From: an uncultured Nitrososphaerota archaeon
GTDB taxonomy: Archaea > Thermoproteota > Nitrososphaeria > Nitrososphaerales > CADDZS01
DNA: 64,000 nucleotides
Assembly (NCBI GenBank): GCA_963799845.1
Contig: CAWCYI010000003.1
Span: 1 to 64,000, forward strand
Reading direction: 5' to 3'
Made by a program: the position numbers and the translations under genes. Below the pieces are notes generated by a model. It had not been told where the DNA came from, searched no databases, and was given only the letters and a program-made list of their open reading frames with translations. Shown here piece after piece: positions 7,873 to 40,805 of the stretch; the stretch's first letter is position 1; every line of letters starts with the position of its first letter.

Positions 7873-7963
7873 GGGCCGGTAGTTCAGCGGTAGCAACGCC
7901 CGCCTTGCAATCGAGTTCCGACTAGATCGCGGGAGGTCCTGGGTTCAAATCCCAGCCGGTCCA
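7873..7963 (+). tRNA. tRNA-Ala(TGC) with canonical intron 7910-7927
   Basis: GGGCCGG/CCGGTCC acceptor stem with G3:U70, anticodon TGC at 7906-7908, T-loop GTTCAAATC. Confidence 0.95.
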
Positions 7964-7989
7964 CTTCTACCTAGAATCATAGCATAGTT

Positions 7990-27716: not shown

Positions 27717-28793
27717 TTGTCTTCACCAACGCACCCCGAAGTTTCCGAAGGCGTGGGGAGGAGCGTAGTCTCCCCGCGCAGTACGAGATTATGGAAGTGG
27801 GGGCGTGGTGCAATCATCATGTTTGCCGCAGTGGCAGTCGCAGCAGTGCTCGTCTGGCAAGGCGTCACTGCAGCAGGCAATCCGAGCCCGACACCTGGCA
27901 CGTCTTTCCCGGTGGCCGCGCTCGACATCGCAGTAATGGTAAGCCGCGAGGGCCTCGAAGCAATCCTTGTCCTAGCGGCTCTCATCGTGGGTCTCAAGGG
28001 CAAGAACACTGGATACCAGCGCCCGATACAGCTAGGAGCGGGACTAGGCTTTTTTGCGGTCCTCGCGACGTGGTTTGCAACAATCTCCATCGTCAGCGAC
28101 CTGACCGTGAACTACGGTGCGCTCGAGCTCCAAGCTGCGACAGGAATGTTCGCTGTTATTGTTATACTCATCGAAATGGATTGGTTCTTCCATGGCGTTT
28201 ACTGGTCGAACTGGATCAACATGCAGGATCGGTCAAAATGGTCACTCATAGGAGAAGCCGGCCAATTGGGCAAAAACTCCCGTCGCATACTTCTCGGTCT
28301 GGTATTGGTCGGCTTTGCCCCAGTGTACCGCGAAGGATTCGAGGTTGTCCTCTTCCTCCAGAGCTATTATCTCGAGATGGGACCTCGGGTTGTCTACTAT
28401 GGAGCGGCGGCGGGACTTGCCTTGACGGTGGCTGTTGGTTACCTCACGTTCTTAGGGCAGCGCCACCTCCCTTACAAAAAGATGCTCATCGCGACGGGCG
28501 TCCTCCTCACGGGCGTTCTCTTCGTGATGGTGGGCGAAGAGGTCAGCGAGATGCAGCTCGCGGGATGGATCGGTACTACGAACATTCCGTGGCTCCAAGG
28601 CGTCCCCGCTTGGGCGGAGAGCTGGTTCTCAATCTTCCCCAACGTGCAGACGTTTGTGGCGCAGGCACTCGCGCTTCTAAGTGTGGCCGGAAGCTTCTTT
28701 TTCCTTAGGTACCGCATGTGGAAACTGATTCAAAAGTCGAAGAGCATTGCACGGGTGGCAAGTCATAACATAGGGAAGCCCAAGTCCAGTTGA
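27717..28793 (+). CDS. FTR1/EfeU iron permease
   Basis: Two RExxE motifs (REGLE, REGFE); multiple TM helices. Confidence 0.88.
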   Translation: MSSPTHPEVSEGVGRSVVSPRSTRLWKWGRGAIIMFAAVAVAAVLVWQGVTAAGNPSPTPGTSFPVAALDIAVMVSREGLEAILVLAALIVGLKGKNTGYQRPIQLGAGLGFFAVLATWFATISIVSDLTVNYGALELQAATGMFAVIVILIEMDWFFHGVYWSNWINMQDRSKWSLIGEAGQLGKNSRRILLGLVLVGFAPVYREGFEVVLFLQSYYLEMGPRVVYYGAAAGLALTVAVGYLTFLGQRHLPYKKMLIATGVLLTGVLFVMVGEEVSEMQLAGWIGTTNIPWLQGVPAWAESWFSIFPNVQTFVAQALALLSVAGSFFFLRYRMWKLIQKSKSIARVASHNIGKPKSS

Positions 28794-29600: not shown

Positions 29601-30578
29601 ATGGCTAGTCCTACGCCTGGACCAAACTCCAAGAGCGATACCGAAGACGGAAAGGTCAGTTCTATTACCGGTGGGGGGATAACCTGGATAGACATTCTAG
29701 ATCCCACCGCGGCCGAAATGGCAATGCTCGCGCGTGACTATCACTTTCACTCTTTGGACTTGGATTCTTGTCTTTCTACAATGCAACTGACGAAGGTTGA
29801 GGATCACGAAGAGTATTTCTTCATCATGCTGCAAATCCCGGTTCAGGTCGGTCAAGGAGTCATCAATTCTGATCAGGTCTCGATGTTTTTGGGGAAGGAC
29901 TATCTCGTGACCATTCATCCGTCTAGCCTTAAGAGTCTCTCGGCAATGTTCCAGTCATGTAGCGATGACGAAAAAGAACGAAGCACATTCATGAAGTCCT
30001 CGGCCTACCTAGCGTATAGGATAATCGACAGGATGTCAGATGGTATCTCTGCGATTTTAGATAACGTGCAGGCGAGTCTTAACAGCATCGAGGCGGTCGT
30101 ATTCGATGAGAAGAAATCTTCTGCCCGCGCCATAAATCTCGCGCGTCGTCAGATTGCTACGCTGAGAAGGATCGTCTATCCGCTGGATCTGTACATTGGT
30201 GACTTGAACAAGGCGCAAAAGTTCAGCAAAGAAGATCTTACAATCTACTTTAGCGATATCCGCCATAAAGTCGGGAAGATCTCTGCGAGAATCGAAGAGA
30301 TGAAGGAGATTGTGGAGATATACAACGACACCGACTTTGTCACGAGCAGCAATCGGACAAACACCGTTCTTTCGTTCTTGACACTCATCTTCACTCTCAC
30401 CCTTCCTGCTGCAGTGATAGCTGCATTCTACGGGATGAACATACCTATTCCAGGTGCCCTCGTGCCGGGAGCGCTGGATTACTTTGGAACTTATACCTCT
30501 CTATTGTTTGTAGTAGTCGTGATGATCGTTCCAACCGTCATCATGGGAGCGTACTTCAAACGCCGCGGTTGGTTCTAG
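29601..30578 (+). CDS. corA: CorA Mg2+/Co2+ transporter
   Basis: WIDILDP, YLVTIH, YGMN signature, two C-terminal TM helices. Confidence 0.92.
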   Translation: MASPTPGPNSKSDTEDGKVSSITGGGITWIDILDPTAAEMAMLARDYHFHSLDLDSCLSTMQLTKVEDHEEYFFIMLQIPVQVGQGVINSDQVSMFLGKDYLVTIHPSSLKSLSAMFQSCSDDEKERSTFMKSSAYLAYRIIDRMSDGISAILDNVQASLNSIEAVVFDEKKSSARAINLARRQIATLRRIVYPLDLYIGDLNKAQKFSKEDLTIYFSDIRHKVGKISARIEEMKEIVEIYNDTDFVTSSNRTNTVLSFLTLIFTLTLPAAVIAAFYGMNIPIPGALVPGALDYFGTYTSLLFVVVVMIVPTVIMGAYFKRRGWF

Positions 30579-31675: not shown

Positions 31676-31948
31676 CTACCGGGTCCCAAGCTGAACCGCG
31701 ATTAGCAAGAAAGAAGCCGCGACCAGACAACCCAGAAGCAGCCAGTTATTGCTTGCAACCGTTAGGGTCGGTTTATAGTATATGTAAACTACCATGGCGA
31801 AAATCACCAATTCCGAGCCAAGCAATGCTCCAAAGACGCGCTGAAGGGAAACAAGATCTAAGATCCAAAGGTATACGACAATTGAACCGGCCGCAGTAGC
31901 GAGGAGTGTGGCTATGGAATATCTCACAATATCGTAGTCAGACTTCAT
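31676..31948 (-). CDS. Small 3-TM protein, last gene of the Rieske/cyt b operon
   Basis: ATGA overlap with cytochrome b; hydrophobic. Confidence 0.7.
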   Translation of the reverse strand: MKSDYDIVRYSIATLLATAAGSIVVYLWILDLVSLQRVFGALLGSELVIFAMVVYIYYKPTLTVASNNWLLLGCLVAASFLLIAVQLGTR

Positions 31949-33381
31949 GCTCGTCTTTCCTGCCGCAAGGTAAGGGTTCTCATCATTCTGGCCATCGCAA
32001 AAAACGATCCGAAAAGCACGACGAAATCAATTAGGGCAAGAAATGGATTTACTGGAACTGTCGTAAGAGATCCCACAAGGTTAGCAAAGCTAACCGATCC
32101 TGCAATCAGCGGGATCATGAATAGCGCCGTTATGGTTCGGTTTCTGAACGGGAGCATCATCATGGGTAGAGGGGACTTTACTGGCATCTTCACATTTTTC
32201 GTACGAATCAACTTATCTCTAAAAATGTATAAAGAAACTAGAACAACGCCGAGAGCAACTCCTCCGTTGACAATTATTGCCTGATAATCTGGAATGATCC
32301 GTCCCGGGGTAAGATAGCCCCAGACCGTCAACGTCAAGACTTCTGCGATCAAAATCAGACCGATAGTTGTGTATAATGGTCTCGACTTTGGATCCCTCTG
32401 AGATCCGCGATCGTAGAACGGCAGAAGCGCAAGTCCGACAGCAAGGATCGTCACTGCGCCGAGAGCAAAGTATATCCCGGATCCCTCAAAAGCCTCCACC
32501 TTCAAAATCTGGTACATCCAAAGGAAGTACCAGTCAGGTTGCGCCACGTAATTTGCGGCAGCCTGGGGGGTGTATTCTACTGGGAGATTAATTGGGAACA
32601 TTGCCGCCGCTACAAAGATTACGGCTACAAACGCTGCCCCTATCATTGCAAAATAAAGATAAACGGTTGGGAACCACGGGACTTCTTTTGGATTTTTTAC
32701 CGCGCCCTCGACTGGTTCGGCCGCTCCATGCGCTTCAAACATATACAATTTCAGCGCAAGGAGTGAGAGGAGACCTGCCGGCAGGACAATTATGTGAAGA
32801 TCGAAGAATCTTGTCAGCTCGGCAGCCCCAGTTCCCGATCCGGCAACCAAGAAAGTTAGGATCGGTCCTATTTGCGCAGGTAGGAAACTGAGCATTCCTA
32901 TTGAGACATCTGTTCCGGATTTCGAAACGACAGTCCACGGAAGTAGATATCCTGTCAGACCCAACCCCAACACAGTCAATCCCATCAGCATCCCTATGAC
33001 CCACATCATTTCACGTGGTTTCTTTTGTACGCTGGAAAAATATCCCCGGAATAAGTGAAGAAAAGTGAGCAAAATCATCGCATAGGCACCGTAAAGATGC
33101 ACCGTTTCGAGGAGCCATCCGAGCGGCACCACTTTGATTATGAAGGCGGTGGAAGAGTACGCTTGATCAGTTGTTGGCACGTAGTAGATCAGCATTAGCA
33201 GACCGGTCAACACCTGCAGCCCAAATGCAATCACGGTGAGCGCACCGAGCCAGTACAATGGGTTCATGCTGTACTCGGGAACTGGCCGAAGGACGTTTGT
33301 CTGCAGTCCAAACCTGTCTTTGAACCACTCAACAAACCTTCTTCCGGGATTTTCGGTCATTTTGTTACTCTCCCTTATCAT
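31945..33381 (-). CDS. Cytochrome b (fused b6/subunit IV type) of a Rieske/cyt b complex
   Basis: QVLTG, HLYGA...LHLFRG, PREMMW, TGYLLPW, RFFDLH, PDWY. Confidence 0.92.
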   Translation of the reverse strand: MIRESNKMTENPGRRFVEWFKDRFGLQTNVLRPVPEYSMNPLYWLGALTVIAFGLQVLTGLLMLIYYVPTTDQAYSSTAFIIKVVPLGWLLETVHLYGAYAMILLTFLHLFRGYFSSVQKKPREMMWVIGMLMGLTVLGLGLTGYLLPWTVVSKSGTDVSIGMLSFLPAQIGPILTFLVAGSGTGAAELTRFFDLHIIVLPAGLLSLLALKLYMFEAHGAAEPVEGAVKNPKEVPWFPTVYLYFAMIGAAFVAVIFVAAAMFPINLPVEYTPQAAANYVAQPDWYFLWMYQILKVEAFEGSGIYFALGAVTILAVGLALLPFYDRGSQRDPKSRPLYTTIGLILIAEVLTLTVWGYLTPGRIIPDYQAIIVNGGVALGVVLVSLYIFRDKLIRTKNVKMPVKSPLPMMMLPFRNRTITALFMIPLIAGSVSFANLVGSLTTVPVNPFLALIDFVVLFGSFFAMARMMRTLTLRQERRA

Positions 33382-34073
33382 GAACTGGAAAGAACTGTCG
33401 CGTCGGTCACTACAGTTCCGCCCGTGAGGTCATCTGCTAGAACGGTGGCAGGATCGCTCGTGCCGGGAGGCCCGTGTTGAAAGATGGTGGGTGCTCCCAT
33501 TCCGATTGCCGAAATGTCGCCAGTCGAACTGTCGTACTGCAGCTTTACCTGCGGAACCGGTCTTGGCGCCGGTCCACTGACCACCTTCGCCCCGTTTACA
33601 AGGTCGTATACACTGCCATGGCAGCAGCAGTAACCAACCGGACCAGGGGCTTTGTAAGATCCGTTACATGTTGGCGCCGAACCACTCCCGACAAAGCCAT
33701 AGATGCAGCCGAGGTGTTGGCATACCGCGCTGAACGCAACGATGTCGCTATCTGGCCCTACCCCACCCTGCGCATGGACTCCGAGCTTGACAAGAAAGTT
33801 CGGCGTTTCCTCCAAAGGATAGTTGAAATTCAGCGGTGTCGCCGGATCGAGCGATGAAATGTTCGTAATCTTAACCACGGGCCATGCCAAAGGAACACTT
33901 GTTGTTGAGCCCGCATTCGGCGCCGGAACGAAAGCTAGAATTCTGAACAGGCTTGCAAAAGAACCGACGGTTGCCAAGCCTCCGAAGGTTAGAACGAGCT
34001 TTAGGAAGTTCCTCTTACTCCCGTCATGACCGGGCTCTTCCTTCGCTTCCTTTTCCTTGTCACTTGGTTCCAT
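33378..34073 (-). CDS. Rieske [2Fe-2S] protein (SoxL/AioB-like)
   Basis: Tat-like SKRNFLK, GGVGPDSDIVAFSAVCQHLGC, CCCHGSVYD, GPAPRP. Confidence 0.92.
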   Translation of the reverse strand: MEPSDKEKEAKEEPGHDGSKRNFLKLVLTFGGLATVGSFASLFRILAFVPAPNAGSTTSVPLAWPVVKITNISSLDPATPLNFNYPLEETPNFLVKLGVHAQGGVGPDSDIVAFSAVCQHLGCIYGFVGSGSAPTCNGSYKAPGPVGYCCCHGSVYDLVNGAKVVSGPAPRPVPQVKLQYDSSTGDISAIGMGAPTIFQHGPPGTSDPATVLADDLTGGTVVTDATVLSSS

Positions 34074-34079
34074 CTTTCT

Positions 34080-34436
34080 TCATCTGATCTCTGCATGTTC
34101 TGTATAGCCTAATCTCATCATCAATAACAGTCCGGCTGCTAGACCGAGCAGAACCAACACAAAGGTCACTACAGCGGCGGTTGGGAGATCAAAGGCGATA
34201 CTTATGGAAGACGAGGTAGAAGTGCTGGAAGAAGTTTGCGTAGCGTTACCGCTCGTTGAAACGCCATAAGATGCATGGCTGGCTACCATTCCGAAAAGGG
34301 TGGATAGAGCAAGTGCCATCGCCACAGCTGAAATAGTCTTATACGACAACATAGATTTGCGAGAATTACGCGTTTTTCGAAACGATTGCGAAAGATGTTC
34401 TTTCGCTGATGTTTTGATCAAGATTGACTCGTTCAT
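34080..34436 (-). CDS. Small membrane protein with a Ser/Thr linker
   Basis: Two hydrophobic segments flanking STSGNATQTSSSTSTSSS; coupled within the operon. Confidence 0.65.
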   Translation of the reverse strand: MNESILIKTSAKEHLSQSFRKTRNSRKSMLSYKTISAVAMALALSTLFGMVASHASYGVSTSGNATQTSSSTSTSSSISIAFDLPTAAVVTFVLVLLGLAAGLLLMMRLGYTEHAEIR

Positions 34437-35335
34437 TCCCGTTGTTTGAGAGCGTTCTTGGATGCTGCACGCCTAACAAATGCGAGATTCAGATGTAACG
34501 GTGCCTCGATTGAGAGAAGCAAGAATGAATATACCAAAACTGTCAACTCCGCCATGACAACAACATAAGATACTCCGCCAATTGTGACTGTGATTACCCC
34601 GTCGCCGCCTGCAATGGATATTGCTGCGAGCCCGAGAAGCGAATAGACGACCCTTTGAGGGATCCAAGAACGCGATTCTGATTTATTCATCGTCGATCCT
34701 TCAAGAACTGAAAGCATCACGATTCCAAGAACCAACGATACCGTGAGAGCGGCGAGCCCAACATGCAATACGACCGCGAACGCGTACAGAGCAATCGTCT
34801 CGACGGCAGTACCTGCTATTACCGTGAGAGACAGCGCGACGAGAGCAAAGTACGTCATAAGAGAAGACGGTGAGCGATCATCCGATCTCAAACCACTCTC
34901 TAACCTTGATATCCTCGAAAGCGAGTATCCGGTGATGGGCATCGCGATTCCGATCGTAGTCATCATTGAAAGATTTGTGATCAAGATTTGATTGCTACTT
35001 GAATTGTTGCCCAAGAATGCGAACCCGGTCGCACCTGCAACTACCGTAATGAAAAAGAGCGCAAGATTGGAAACCGCAACGCTCTTCTGATTCTGGATAG
35101 CAGCAAGGAACCCAACGACAGCTGACATTAACCCAAATCCAGATGCAAGAACTCCGTGGACAATAAGGTCGGGCGTGGAGATTGTAGCGTTATGAATCTC
35201 TGTTCCGAGCCACACTCCAAAAATGAACGTGAGGACCAGAAAGAGAGCTTGGAGATATATGAAGTAGAGAATCTGTCTCGCACGTTGCTTCTCGTTCTTT
35301 TGGCTCAAATTCTCTGAGAGAGATACAACTGTCAT
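34433..35335 (-). CDS. 8-TM protein made of two His/Met 4-TM repeats
   Basis: PDLIVHGVLA and VVLHVGLA; overlaps both neighbours. Confidence 0.75.
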   Translation of the reverse strand: MTVVSLSENLSQKNEKQRARQILYFIYLQALFLVLTFIFGVWLGTEIHNATISTPDLIVHGVLASGFGLMSAVVGFLAAIQNQKSVAVSNLALFFITVVAGATGFAFLGNNSSSNQILITNLSMMTTIGIAMPITGYSLSRISRLESGLRSDDRSPSSLMTYFALVALSLTVIAGTAVETIALYAFAVVLHVGLAALTVSLVLGIVMLSVLEGSTMNKSESRSWIPQRVVYSLLGLAAISIAGGDGVITVTIGGVSYVVVMAELTVLVYSFLLLSIEAPLHLNLAFVRRAASKNALKQRE

Positions 35336-35850
35336 GCCGTTATTTGTCCTGTCGGCTTGACAAGTTCAGTGATACGGATAGCTCTCACGATCTTGAGAGT
35401 GGCATAATATGAAAGAAACAATGCGAGCATGAAGAGAAATGACATTATCCATCCCCCTATCAGTGTGACAGATCCAGATTGTCTGCTACCGCCACTAGTA
35501 ATGAAAAGCATACCTCCGACGGTCGCAATCACCAGCGAGACAACAGCTCCCAAACTGAACTGGCCAACCTTCTTCATGCCATATAGAAAACCGACTACCA
35601 TAACGACGAAAGTAAATGCAAAGTTTACGATTGCCAAAACCATGTGCACGATATTGGCAGCATCACCGATGCCTATAGTATTGATTCCTGACGTGATGAA
35701 TATGTTGATGTACATGCCTGTCACGTATAGCAAGAGATACACGAGAAAATTCGCGTAACAAAGCCTGAGAGTTAGGCGCAGACCTCGAAGACCAAGAGTT
35801 CCCATCTCCTCGCCCTCCAATGACCTGTCTATTTGTTGAGCTTCAACCAA
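35332..35850 (-). CDS. 4-TM His/Met protein (paralog)
   Basis: GMY, IVHMVLA, WIMSFLF. Confidence 0.75.
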   Translation of the reverse strand: MVEAQQIDRSLEGEEMGTLGLRGLRLTLRLCYANFLVYLLLYVTGMYINIFITSGINTIGIGDAANIVHMVLAIVNFAFTFVVMVVGFLYGMKKVGQFSLGAVVSLVIATVGGMLFITSGGSRQSGSVTLIGGWIMSFLFMLALFLSYYATLKIVRAIRITELVKPTGQITA

Positions 35851-35852
35851 GT

Positions 35853-36380
35853 CTATCTTCCCACCGGTGGCTGCTGAATCGGGGCGGCGAACTTTATTCG
35901 TACGTCTTCCCTGACGATGAATATTCTGCTTAAGAATGTCAAGATAACTGCAAGAAGAAAAACTGAAGCCATGATGAAAGTGGAAATGCTCGCAGATTCT
36001 GCGTTGTTTATTGAGGATGTCGAGTAGTAAATGAACAGTGGACCTGCAACAAAGCCTACCAGCCTCGAGCTCATTGCCCCGCTGTGCAACAACACAACTT
36101 TGGGCAGCCCAACTCTTCTCGCCAATATGATAATCGGGATGCTCATACTCGTACTCAAAACAGCGAAAGCGACATGCGCAAAAAGATCCGGTGCCGCGAA
36201 AAGCTGCGAGAAGATATTTGAGAAATTCGCCTGCACTGTGCTCGGGACTGAATAATAATAATTATCATACATACCTGCCGCAATTGTCGCCCAGTAAAAA
36301 GCAAATTGCAGGTACAACACAAGAAAAATTCGATGTAGGGTCTTTGAGATCTTCTCGTTCTCGGAGAAAGTGTTTGTCAC
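35853..36380 (-). CDS. 4-TM His/Met protein (paralog), first gene of the operon
   Basis: YLQ, GMY, PDLFAHVAFA, FIMASVF. Confidence 0.75.
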   Translation of the reverse strand: MTNTFSENEKISKTLHRIFLVLYLQFAFYWATIAAGMYDNYYYSVPSTVQANFSNIFSQLFAAPDLFAHVAFAVLSTSMSIPIIILARRVGLPKVVLLHSGAMSSRLVGFVAGPLFIYYSTSSINNAESASISTFIMASVFLLAVILTFLSRIFIVREDVRIKFAAPIQQPPVGR

Positions 36381-39704: not shown

Positions 39705-40805
39705 TTACCAGATAGATCCCCACTCTTGGTCTCTCTCGACGAATATCATGTCCTGTTTCACTCTTATCTTGTATGTTCGAATGCCTGGAAAAGTGTCTCC
39801 GTCGCAGCCGTAACTTCCGTTAAGGCATGCGCCCGTCGCAAGATCGAACACAGCGCCATGTAACGGACACTTCACATTCCTAGCGTCGCAGTTGACTTTT
39901 CCGCGCGATAGATCAGTTCCGATGTGCGTGCAGATGGGCTCCATCGCGTAGATTTTGCTTCCAGACTTTACAAGAAGTATTTCACTTCCGTTCACTACAA
40001 ATTTAAGTCCGGCAGCACTTTCTTTTAGGGCACTTAGAGTGCAAAGCTGGAACGCGTCCACGTTTGTCAGATTAGAATGATGGTTGTTATGACCTAGGTA
40101 TTCCTGCTTTTTCCTTTCCCTAACTTGATTGGTGTCAGCTGCAAAATTCTTGCGAAGAAAATTCTTTCTCTCGCTGTTATCAACTGTCCATGGGTTAAAG
40201 TCTGAGACTTTTTCTGAATACAACTCGTAGATCCCATCTTTCATGAATGCTCTCTCGAGCCCGTCGAGCTCAAGCGTGCTACAGAACTTGATCCCGTCAA
40301 TCCACTTGCGGCTCTTGAAGCCGAACTCTCCCGGAGCGACTATTCGTACAGGATAGCCGGCAGTTCTGGAAAGTTTCGAGCCGTTCTGGCCGTCCGCAAG
40401 CAGAAGATCCTGGTCAATAGGGAACCTCTGGCTCAGGTTTTTGAAGCTCTCGACTATCAAGTATCGCGCGCTGCTTCGAACGCGGGTCTTTTCCTTGATA
40501 ACAGAAATTTCCACGCCGTTCCACATTTGACCGAGATAGCTCCAGCCGTCCACGCAGTGGTGATCCAGAGTCTTCGAAACGTGTGGAAGATTTTGAAACT
40601 CCTCATAGGTAAACTCGAGCGGATTCTCGACTTCTCCATAGGTCCTGAATCGCCACTTTTCAATGTCGAAATCCGCTGGCTGATTGGAGTTGGGATTGTT
40701 GATCGGCCAACGCTCAACTGGTGCGACACGCCAACCCGGTGGGACGCGTTCGGGATAATTGGCATAACCTCTCTTGTTCATTTGTGTGCAGACCCGCAGG
40801 ATCAT
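39705..40805 (-). CDS. Sulfite-oxidase-family molybdopterin domain fused to a Rieske ferredoxin
   Basis: RVPPG, W...GEVENP, HCVDGWS, GYPVRIV, GFKSRKWI; C-terminal CTHIG...CPLHGAVFDL. Confidence 0.82.
   Translation of the reverse strand: MILRVCTQMNKRGYANYPERVPPGWRVAPVERWPINNPNSNQPADFDIEKWRFRTYGEVENPLEFTYEEFQNLPHVSKTLDHHCVDGWSYLGQMWNGVEISVIKEKTRVRSSARYLIVESFKNLSQRFPIDQDLLLADGQNGSKLSRTAGYPVRIVAPGEFGFKSRKWIDGIKFCSTLELDGLERAFMKDGIYELYSEKVSDFNPWTVDNSERKNFLRKNFAADTNQVRERKKQEYLGHNNHHSNLTNVDAFQLCTLSALKESAAGLKFVVNGSEILLVKSGSKIYAMEPICTHIGTDLSRGKVNCDARNVKCPLHGAVFDLATGACLNGSYGCDGDTFPGIRTYKIRVKQDMIFVERDQEWGSIW

Follow-up and report, generated by a model that had tools for sequence, protein, structure and literature searches.

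The stretch of DNA analysed here, called the window below, comprises 64,000 nucleotides (positions 1 to 64,000, forward strand) of contig CAWCYI010000003.1 in the assembly GCA_963799845.1 of an uncultured Nitrososphaerota archaeon. According to the list of open reading frames (ORFs), it contains a minus-strand operon of seven ORFs running from 36380 to 31676 in the order A-B-C-D-Rieske-cytochrome b-G. Adjoining or overlapping gene ends are found throughout: A and B are separated by 2 bases, B and C as well as C and D overlap by 4 bases, D and the Rieske gene are separated by 6 bases, and the Rieske/cytochrome b and cytochrome b/G junctions are again 4-base overlaps. Upstream of A, about 610 bases devoid of any long minus-strand ORF lead to a gene for a MarR-type regulator. 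The listed public sequencing runs were 4 DNA runs from a single soil study, with no RNA run among them. Genes A (35853-36380, 175 amino acids, aa) and B (35332-35850, 172 aa) are paralogues and each encode a single unit of four transmembrane (TM) helices, and gene C (34433-35335, 300 aa) encodes two such units in tandem, with eight TM helices in all (N-half, approximately residues 1-149; C-half, approximately residues 150-300). Gene D (34080-34436, 118 aa) features a signal-peptide-like N-terminal helix, a C-terminal TM anchor and a Ser/Thr-rich stretch with N-x-S/T sequons, has no conserved His, and judging from its sequence likely represents a small glycosylated single-TM subunit. It is followed by genes for a Rieske iron-sulfur protein (33378-34073, 231 aa) with an N-terminal TM or Tat-like segment, for a cytochrome b with fused N- and C-terminal cytochrome b domains (31945-33381, 478 aa), and, at the 3' end of the operon, for the small subunit G (31676-31948, 90 aa) with about three TM helices.

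The Rieske protein matches PF00355 with 24.1 bits (Pfam cut-off 20.3), and its cluster motifs CQHLGC (residues 118-123) and CCCH (residues 149-152) conform to the CxHxGC/CxCH pattern. Its NCBIfam matches, arsenite_ox_S-like and SoxL2-like, are both under cut-off, with 72.6 bits for the SoxL2 equivalog against a cut-off of 582. Cytochrome b matches PF00033 far above the Pfam cut-off (E 1.6e-35), is nearest to SoxC-type models in NCBIfam (197.7 bits against a SoxC equivalog cut-off of 740), and carries PDWY at the Qo motif position. Among the seven operon proteins, none contains a CxxCH, CxxxCH or CxxxxCH motif, by which measure no c-type heme subunit is encoded, and none has a cupredoxin domain in Pfam. 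Proteins A and C are free of Cys, and B has one Cys, in TM1. A, B, C, D and G match no Pfam or NCBIfam family above its cut-off, and A and B have no Pfam match at E up to 1. In these respects the locus bears out a previous interpretation of the window made from its letters (hereafter the sequence-only reading), which had described seven genes with overlapping or adjacent ends, a Rieske/cytochrome b pair whose identities Pfam and NCBIfam now confirm, and neither a CxxCH motif nor a blue-copper protein among the seven products.

The relationship between the upstream membrane proteins was assessed by sequence and profile comparison. A and B match each other in BLASTP at E 1e-7. With unit profiles built from 102 A, 119 B and 55 C homologues, profile-profile comparison gave a probability of 93.6% for A and B (E 2e-7) and of 77% for B and the N-half of C (E 2e-5), and no significant match of the C-half of C to the other units in direct comparison. 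A bridge was provided by the N-half of a two-domain paralogue from other genomes of the same family (profile EN, 8 rows, one of them from the unpublished genome G001). This profile matched A (97.7%, E 2e-12), B (98.0%, E 2e-13), the N-half of C (92.4%, E 5e-7) and the C-half of the two-domain paralogue itself (95.2%), and also matched the C-half of C (59.3%, E 9e-5) with His, a Gly and Met in register. As a control for membrane composition, the same profiles were compared with compact CtaA, archaeal AmoC and a family of bis-His proteins, and reached at most 14%. By these profiles A, B and the N-half of C are certainly three true paralogous copies, beyond chance, and the C-half of C is probably a fourth, which is further backed because the eight-TM model of C described below consists of two four-helix bundles.

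Two other relationships were considered and rejected. A marginal PDB match to AmoC (E 0.66) was not sustained, since hhalign gave less than 1% against archaeal AmoC for all six unit profiles. A sequence link to a divergent bis-His 4-TM family of related genomes was likewise dismissed (at most 14%); the genes of this family do not lie beside cox genes, and none was found in the window's genome.

The four diverged copies share 20-28% identity, and each retains one His, one Met and two Gly. These are Gly36 (TM1), His69 (TM2, codon 36174-36176), Gly113 (TM3) and Met137 (TM4, codon 35970-35972) in A; Gly45 (TM1), His69 (TM2, codon 35644-35646), Gly113 (TM3) and Met136 (TM4, codon 35443-35445) in B; Gly40 (TM1), His60 (TM2), Gly104 (TM3) and Met124 (TM4) in the N-half of C; and Gly175, His191, Gly246 and Met261, on TM1 to TM4 of the unit, in its C-half. 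The His and Met residues are invariant in the 102 A, 119 B and 55 C sequences, those of C being retained even in the most divergent orthologues (38% identity), and the TM1 and TM3 Gly, near the outer helix end, are likewise invariant within each orthologue set. Lys and Arg are concentrated at the N-terminus, in the TM2-TM3 loop and at the C-terminus, with few or none in the remaining two loops; by the positive-inside rule, both termini are therefore inside. Counted from the outer face, His thereby occupies a position 5-7 residues deep in TM2, and Met one 4-8 residues deep in TM4, with the Gly residues at about the same depth. The sequence-only reading, all of whose quoted motif strings for A, B and C are present in the translations, thus proved right in predicting conservation of His and Met in all four units and their position near the outer face, on the same rather than on opposite sides of the membrane. 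Its alignment of the upstream proteins as paralogues is upheld for A, B and the N-half of C, and its second copy within C is probable.

Residues of this kind could also point to copper. A, B and C might bind or move this metal instead of heme, either as outer-face Cu(I) sites that load the cupredoxins or the oxidase of what is a copper-dependent respiratory chain, or as a copper centre in the membrane. Soft-metal ligands typical of Cu(I) include His, Met, Tyr and Asn, and the invariant outer-face residues of B include Met46, Tyr47, Asn49, His69, Met70 and Met136; moreover, a G-M-Y-x-N motif is common to A, B and the paralogues, the genome has genes for several cupredoxins and for a CuA-type oxidase subunit, and a convergent cupredoxin gene follows one A-B-C locus. 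Neither half of C has the G-M-Y-x-N motif, however, and no known copper-transporter family was matched in Pfam or NCBIfam.

Further clues were obtained from structure prediction. An AlphaFold2 model of C based on a 46-row alignment (predicted local distance difference test, pLDDT, 79; predicted template-modelling score, pTM, 0.78) features eight TM helices and a terminal helix. The top two PDB matches of this model in Foldseek were heme A synthases, 8aw5_A (E 0.011, template-modelling scores 0.51/0.56) and 6a2j (E 0.028), at E values that in no case reached 0.001; weak matches to CydB were also noted (probability 0.87 and 0.63, template-modelling scores 0.38 and 0.37). Using VIA-align, 8aw5_A aligned with Z 17.6 over 232 residues (root-mean-square deviation 4.0) and 6ied_A with Z 15.8 over 253 residues, and heme A synthases alone covered both halves of the model, the other rows being single four-helix bundles with Z of at most 15.0. 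A model of the two-domain paralogue (pLDDT 81.5, 7-row alignment excluding the unpublished genome) matched heme A synthases with Z 18.5 (271 aligned) and Z 18.1 (236 aligned), the next row having 14.6. Helical bundles reach Z of about 13-15 through arrangement alone, and the margin of the predicted folds over other helical bundles is therefore modest, yet it is reproduced in an independent model.

For the complex of A and B, the predictions gave interface scores (interaction prediction score from aligned errors, ipSAE) of 0.71, 0.65 and 0.67 (median 0.67) against 0.00 in three controls, with partner pLDDT no lower than 83 and with 82% or more of the contacts common between runs. The ipSAE mark is reached by 58 of 80 solved complexes and by 2 of 110 mismatched pairs, a calibration that is only rough for A and B, for which custom alignments and two riding hemes were used. 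The predicted interface involves TM1, TM4 and the C-terminal helix of each protein, and the prediction supports pairing of A and B with each other. It also bears on copper binding, as A Asn40, B Asn49 and B Met46 are found in this interface and not in the bundle core. Together with the heme A synthase fold, the succession Gly-His-Gly-Met on successive helices suits a porphyrin pocket better than a copper site, and we regard a copper function of A, B and C as improbable.

The likeness to heme A synthase deserves scrutiny. In passages of PMC12808453, this enzyme is described as holding two hemes through His residues on TM II/IV and TM VI/VIII, archaeal four-helix forms are described as working as dimers, and exchange of H2 (the His of TM IV) for Met is described as leaving heme bound but activity lost. 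C and the two-domain paralogue resemble the enzyme in their eight TM helices arranged as two four-helix bundles, the 4-TM proteins A and B, predicted to pair, recall the compact archaeal type 1A form, and in all cases one ligand or putative ligand residue is found close to where helix 2/6 begins on the outer side, and a second one on helix 4/8. Unlike heme A synthase, A, B and C have Met on TM4/TM8 in place of the second and fourth His, are without the catalytic Glu, the E-x-x-H-R motif and the outer-loop Cys pair, and are linked to Rieske/cytochrome b genes and not to cox genes. C has no match to PF02628 in Pfam, and sequence and profile searches of the PDB with the A+B and C alignments did not recover heme A synthase or anything else of relevance. 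A, B and C share the architecture of heme A synthase and fall outside its membership.

Nevertheless, the fold would suit a divergent enzyme that modifies heme in place of heme A synthase, or a chaperone delivering heme to cytochrome b or to the oxidase, in either case with no part in electron transport, and the distribution of the genuine enzyme would be in line with this. COX15/CtaA is found above the Pfam cut-off in 0 of 13 genomes of the family (the window's genome, 86.7% complete, and 12 others), as compared to 19 of 28 genomes of other families of the order, where it occurs as compact 4-TM genes, some beside cox; in addition, nothing was detected in the window's genome by tblastn with compact CtaA proteins. 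The enzyme variant with Met at the H2 position is inactive, however, and the second and fourth His are precisely those replaced by Met in A, B and C, which also lack the Glu-x-x-His-Arg motif and the Cys pair. Genomes G004, G008, G010 and G011 (87-96% complete) have a heme-copper oxidase and no match to B or to A-B-C, and the A-B-C genes travel with Rieske/cytochrome b and not with cox genes. A role in heme handling thus appears quite unlikely.

The compact 4-TM heme A synthases of ammonia-oxidiser relatives (loci L033, L036, L039-L041, L043 and L044) measure 143-170 aa, apart from a 114-aa ORF in L033 that is truncated where the contig stops, and carry a CPxWPLC loop together with E-x-x-H-R. 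The neighbours of the L044 gene are coxB, coxA and a UbiA-type gene.

A search of 1.84 billion representative proteins with an A+B profile yielded 21 clusters at E up to 0.001, consisting of A types, B types, one A-B fusion, two-domain proteins and a few single-domain proteins. The two-domain proteins (288-312 aa) were each matched in two stretches, and the natural A-B fusion (P0301) is a single sequence on a 2.5-kb contig. All 138 homologues of A are unnamed or annotated as 'hypothetical', and named homologues are without exception 'hypothetical protein' entries of Thaumarchaeota, Nitrososphaerales or, by label, Bathyarchaeia metagenome bins. With C, a search of the ESM Atlas returned unnamed clusters only (scores of at most 0.86, low recognition), and a phylum-wide profile search produced one marginal match (E 0.0024) in 400 other genomes. 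When B was used as query against 40 relatives, matches were obtained in 7 of 12 genomes of the window's own family, and none of the 28 genomes representing the order's 19 other families gave a match.

Synteny extends over all seven genes in four related genomes, which are included in the 14 species-level loci found with the B alignment. One syntenic locus belongs to isolate SubAcS9-71, from a heterotrophic terrestrial clade of Thaumarchaeota related to, but outside, the Gagatemarchaeaceae according to passages of PMC10640624, a text in which a term search found no mention of Rieske or complex III. A, B and C occur together in all 14 loci, and in 11 of these they are directly followed by Rieske, cytochrome b and G, with a D-type ORF between C and Rieske in each of the 11 linked loci. 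Gene G, present in all four related genomes and in the same proportion of species-level loci (11/14), shows no similarity to a 98-aa ORF that follows the paralogous cytochrome b gene. The genomes with B orthologues (the window's own, G002, G007, G009 and G012) are exactly the five with a cytochrome b 81-100% identical to that of the operon, those of the other 8 family genomes being at most 58% identical; these genomes are kin and not independent, and their co-occurrence pattern is not a statistical test.

The A-B-C genes lack adjacent Rieske/cytochrome b genes in 3 of the 14 loci, and each of the three genomes concerned has a 50-60% identical cytochrome b elsewhere. In the first of these loci the contig ends about 1 kb after C, past the convergent cupredoxin gene; in the second, a contig end is reached shortly after C; and in the second and third, C is followed by an intein-bearing actin-like gene. 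This actin-like gene is split by a LAGLIDADG intein (L063:8700-11567 and L062:3410-4795, both on the plus strand).

Paralogues of the units also occur in neighbourhoods of a different kind. In three genomes, two-domain paralogues of 307-329 aa (L018:7158-8081, minus strand; L019:1601-2533, plus strand; L017:3039-4028, plus strand, in the unpublished G001) lie in a sulfur-trafficking cluster with genes for a YeeE-type sulfur transporter, TusA, a thioredoxin-fold protein, DUF169, an AAA ATPase, HxlR and a pyridoxal phosphate-rhodanese enzyme. The fold of the His/Met units may thus serve a sulfur-linked membrane process as well. The window's genome itself also encodes a 162-aa paralogue with a single domain (profile E 1e-4; G000:C4:1903135-1903623; L030:7135-7623, minus strand), whose gene has an SRPBCC/polyketide-cyclase-like gene as its neighbour and lies apart from respiratory genes. 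Because of such paralogues, the His/Met domain is not exclusive to respiration. The distribution as a whole agrees with the sequence-only reading in that the family, with 21 clusters only and no named match, is undescribed. As to the expected linkage to Rieske/cytochrome b, the claim is sustained by 11 of 14 loci and by the coincidence of B orthologues with close cytochrome b homologues in five kin genomes, and is weakened by the stand-alone A-B-C loci and the YeeE/TusA paralogues.

These exceptions would make sense if A, B and C held no cofactor and were structural, assembly or proton-path subunits, or performed an independent membrane function while sharing the transcript, their conserved His and Met then serving packing or protonation. 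No evidence of a cofactor speaks against such roles, and operon membership alone is no proof of physical association. They would, however, poorly explain why His and Met at equal depth, along with two Gly, were kept in four copies of such low mutual identity and in paralogues, and we consider them unlikely.

It is tempting to speculate, and we do so tentatively, at somewhat less than an even chance, that four His/Met heme b sites in the A-B pair and in C constitute an electron relay for the Rieske/cytochrome b complex. In cytochrome b, conserved Gly are found on helices A and C and the heme ligands on helices B and D. Each unit is read as a heme b site because Gly, ligand, Gly and ligand are found on successive helices at one depth, and because of the match to heme A synthase. 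A, B and C would then make up one membrane module of four homologous four-helix bundles with heme A synthase architecture, in which A would pair up with B, and one half of C with the other. Within each bundle, a single heme b would sit in the outer leaflet of the membrane, with the invariant His where helix 2 begins on the outer side and the invariant Met in the outer portion of helix 4 as its ligands; the invariant Gly residues of helices 1 and 3 would leave space for the porphyrin, and a high potential would result from His/Met ligation. Electrons would reach the module from the Rieske cluster of the complex encoded in the same operon and would be passed on to cupredoxins or to the heme-copper oxidase encoded elsewhere, so that the module would act in place of cytochrome c1, and D and G would be small membrane subunits. 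Pfam, a motif scan and the syntenic loci point to no other candidate acceptor among the seven proteins of the operon.

Several observations weigh against such a relay. No cofactor was observed, and the output of the A-B prediction does not include positions of its two riding hemes. The likeness to heme A synthase is found at the level of the fold only (at most 14% in hhalign against compact archaeal CtaA), and part of it may be due to the helical arrangement that by itself yields high Z. The C-half of the two-domain paralogue has the His and no fixed Met, the outer loops of A and C offer no Lys or Arg for heme propionates, and the preference of Cu(I) for His, Met, Tyr and Asn applies here as well. 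Residue invariance has limited power, since the members are fairly close (21 clusters, C orthologues at least 37% identical). The cupredoxins encoded elsewhere in the genome could take electrons directly from Rieske, with no need for a relay, and a heme buried in the outer leaflet would not obviously lie within reach of the mobile Rieske head. To these are added the three unlinked A-B-C loci and the paralogues in the sulfur-trafficking cluster. We infer heme binding and His/Met ligation, and at a further remove the relay function. The conserved four-unit operon as an observation is nonetheless well beyond chance, and its interpretation as a heme relay, better grounded by fold, topology, pairing and synteny, appears plausible.

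The cytochrome b of the operon is itself unusual. Of its axial ligands, His95, His109 and His196 are present, and the fourth position is occupied by Lys211 (codon 32749-32751), which aligns with a ligand His of cytochrome b6 chains at the position of the heme bH ligand. Although it does not feature two pairs of His, the protein is, by its sequence, a variant cytochrome b and not a non-member. Lys is found at this position in 11 of 11 cytochromes b of two family-specific clades (5 linked to A-B-C and 6 of the paralogous clade), compared with His in 11 and Arg in 1 of 16 more distant cytochromes b of the order, the alignment of the remaining 4 falling short of the position. Lys211 mirrors an engineered, functional variant of Rhodobacter, H212K, which passages of PMC4807273 describe as keeping its low-spin heme, with a potential higher by about 50 mV, and as still active; in the same passages, the authors, writing in 2016, stated that natural axial ligation by Met or Lys was not known for any heme within an integral membrane protein. 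A literature search at the level of titles found no later report of a natural Lys ligand in cytochrome b, although such a report may exist. That the operon combines both features, a four-heme His/Met relay as substitute for cytochrome c1 and a natural His/Lys heme bH in cytochrome b, seems to us rather doubtful.

The window's genome has three Rieske/cytochrome b loci in all, with differing neighbours, and A-B-C are found only at the operon described here. A second locus (G000:C4:326343-328674; L028) lies beside genes for a NosD-like beta-helix protein and an 801-aa repeat protein, and the third (G000:C1:106364-109766; L029) features a 363-aa Tat-type Rieske protein and a divergently transcribed cupredoxin gene. 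A heme-copper oxidase operon elsewhere in the genome includes three cupredoxin-domain genes. This arrangement supports a modular respiratory chain, in which Rieske/cytochrome b loci are associated with differing partners.

Other features of the window were noted in passing. Just downstream of the 3' end of the operon, genes are found for an FTR1-type iron permease (27717-28793) and a CorA-type magnesium/cobalt transporter (29601-30578), both on the plus strand. About 3 kb from the operon, a minus-strand gene (39705-40805) encodes a 366-aa molybdopterin oxidoreductase of the sulfite-oxidase type with a C-terminal Rieske fusion, an unusual pairing. The sole tRNA called in the window, tRNA-Ala(TGC) at 7873-7964 (plus strand), is with its 92 bases longer than a standard tRNA and might contain an intron, a frequent occurrence in archaea.

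Rieske/cytochrome b complexes occur universally, and their electron acceptors are variable between lineages and poorly known in archaea. An unnamed protein family tied to one such complex in soil Thaumarchaeota that do not oxidise ammonia is therefore of interest, all the more as the host organisms are uncultured and abundant in acid soils. If His/Met heme binding were true, A, B and C would define a new class of membrane cytochromes, in which the heme A synthase fold has been reused as an electron carrier, and a relay would represent a new way for chains without c-type cytochromes to bridge complex III and oxidase. Together with the Lys-for-His cytochrome b, the operon would then provide natural Met and Lys axial ligands of hemes in integral membrane proteins, foreseen by the 2016 study without an example to cite, and thus natural test cases of how axial ligation tunes heme potential in membranes.

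Beyond heme A synthase, some known systems invite comparison. Cytochrome b562 and heme b558 of CydA provide examples of His/Met-ligated heme b inside a four-helix bundle, but A, B and C have no sequence relationship or strong structural relationship to either. CbsA of Sulfolobales is a largely extracellular mono-heme glycoprotein, unlike the polytopic four-helix units of A, B and C, with which it was compared by description only. In the SoxLN-CbsAB-OdsN system, according to passages of PMC5461723, CbsA is a non-c-type heme protein taken as an analogue of cytochrome c1, and is accompanied by CbsB, an uncharacterised hydrophobic protein. The operon resembles this system as an archaeal Rieske/cytochrome b operon without a c-type heme protein, and its Rieske protein and cytochrome b, far under the SoxL2 and SoxC equivalog cut-offs, are set apart from their Sulfolobales counterparts. 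To our knowledge, complex III of ammonia-oxidising Thaumarchaeota likewise combines a Rieske/cytochrome b core with plastocyanin-like acceptors and has no c-type cytochrome. The operon described here stems from the same order of archaea, and in place of a cupredoxin it features A-B-C-D.

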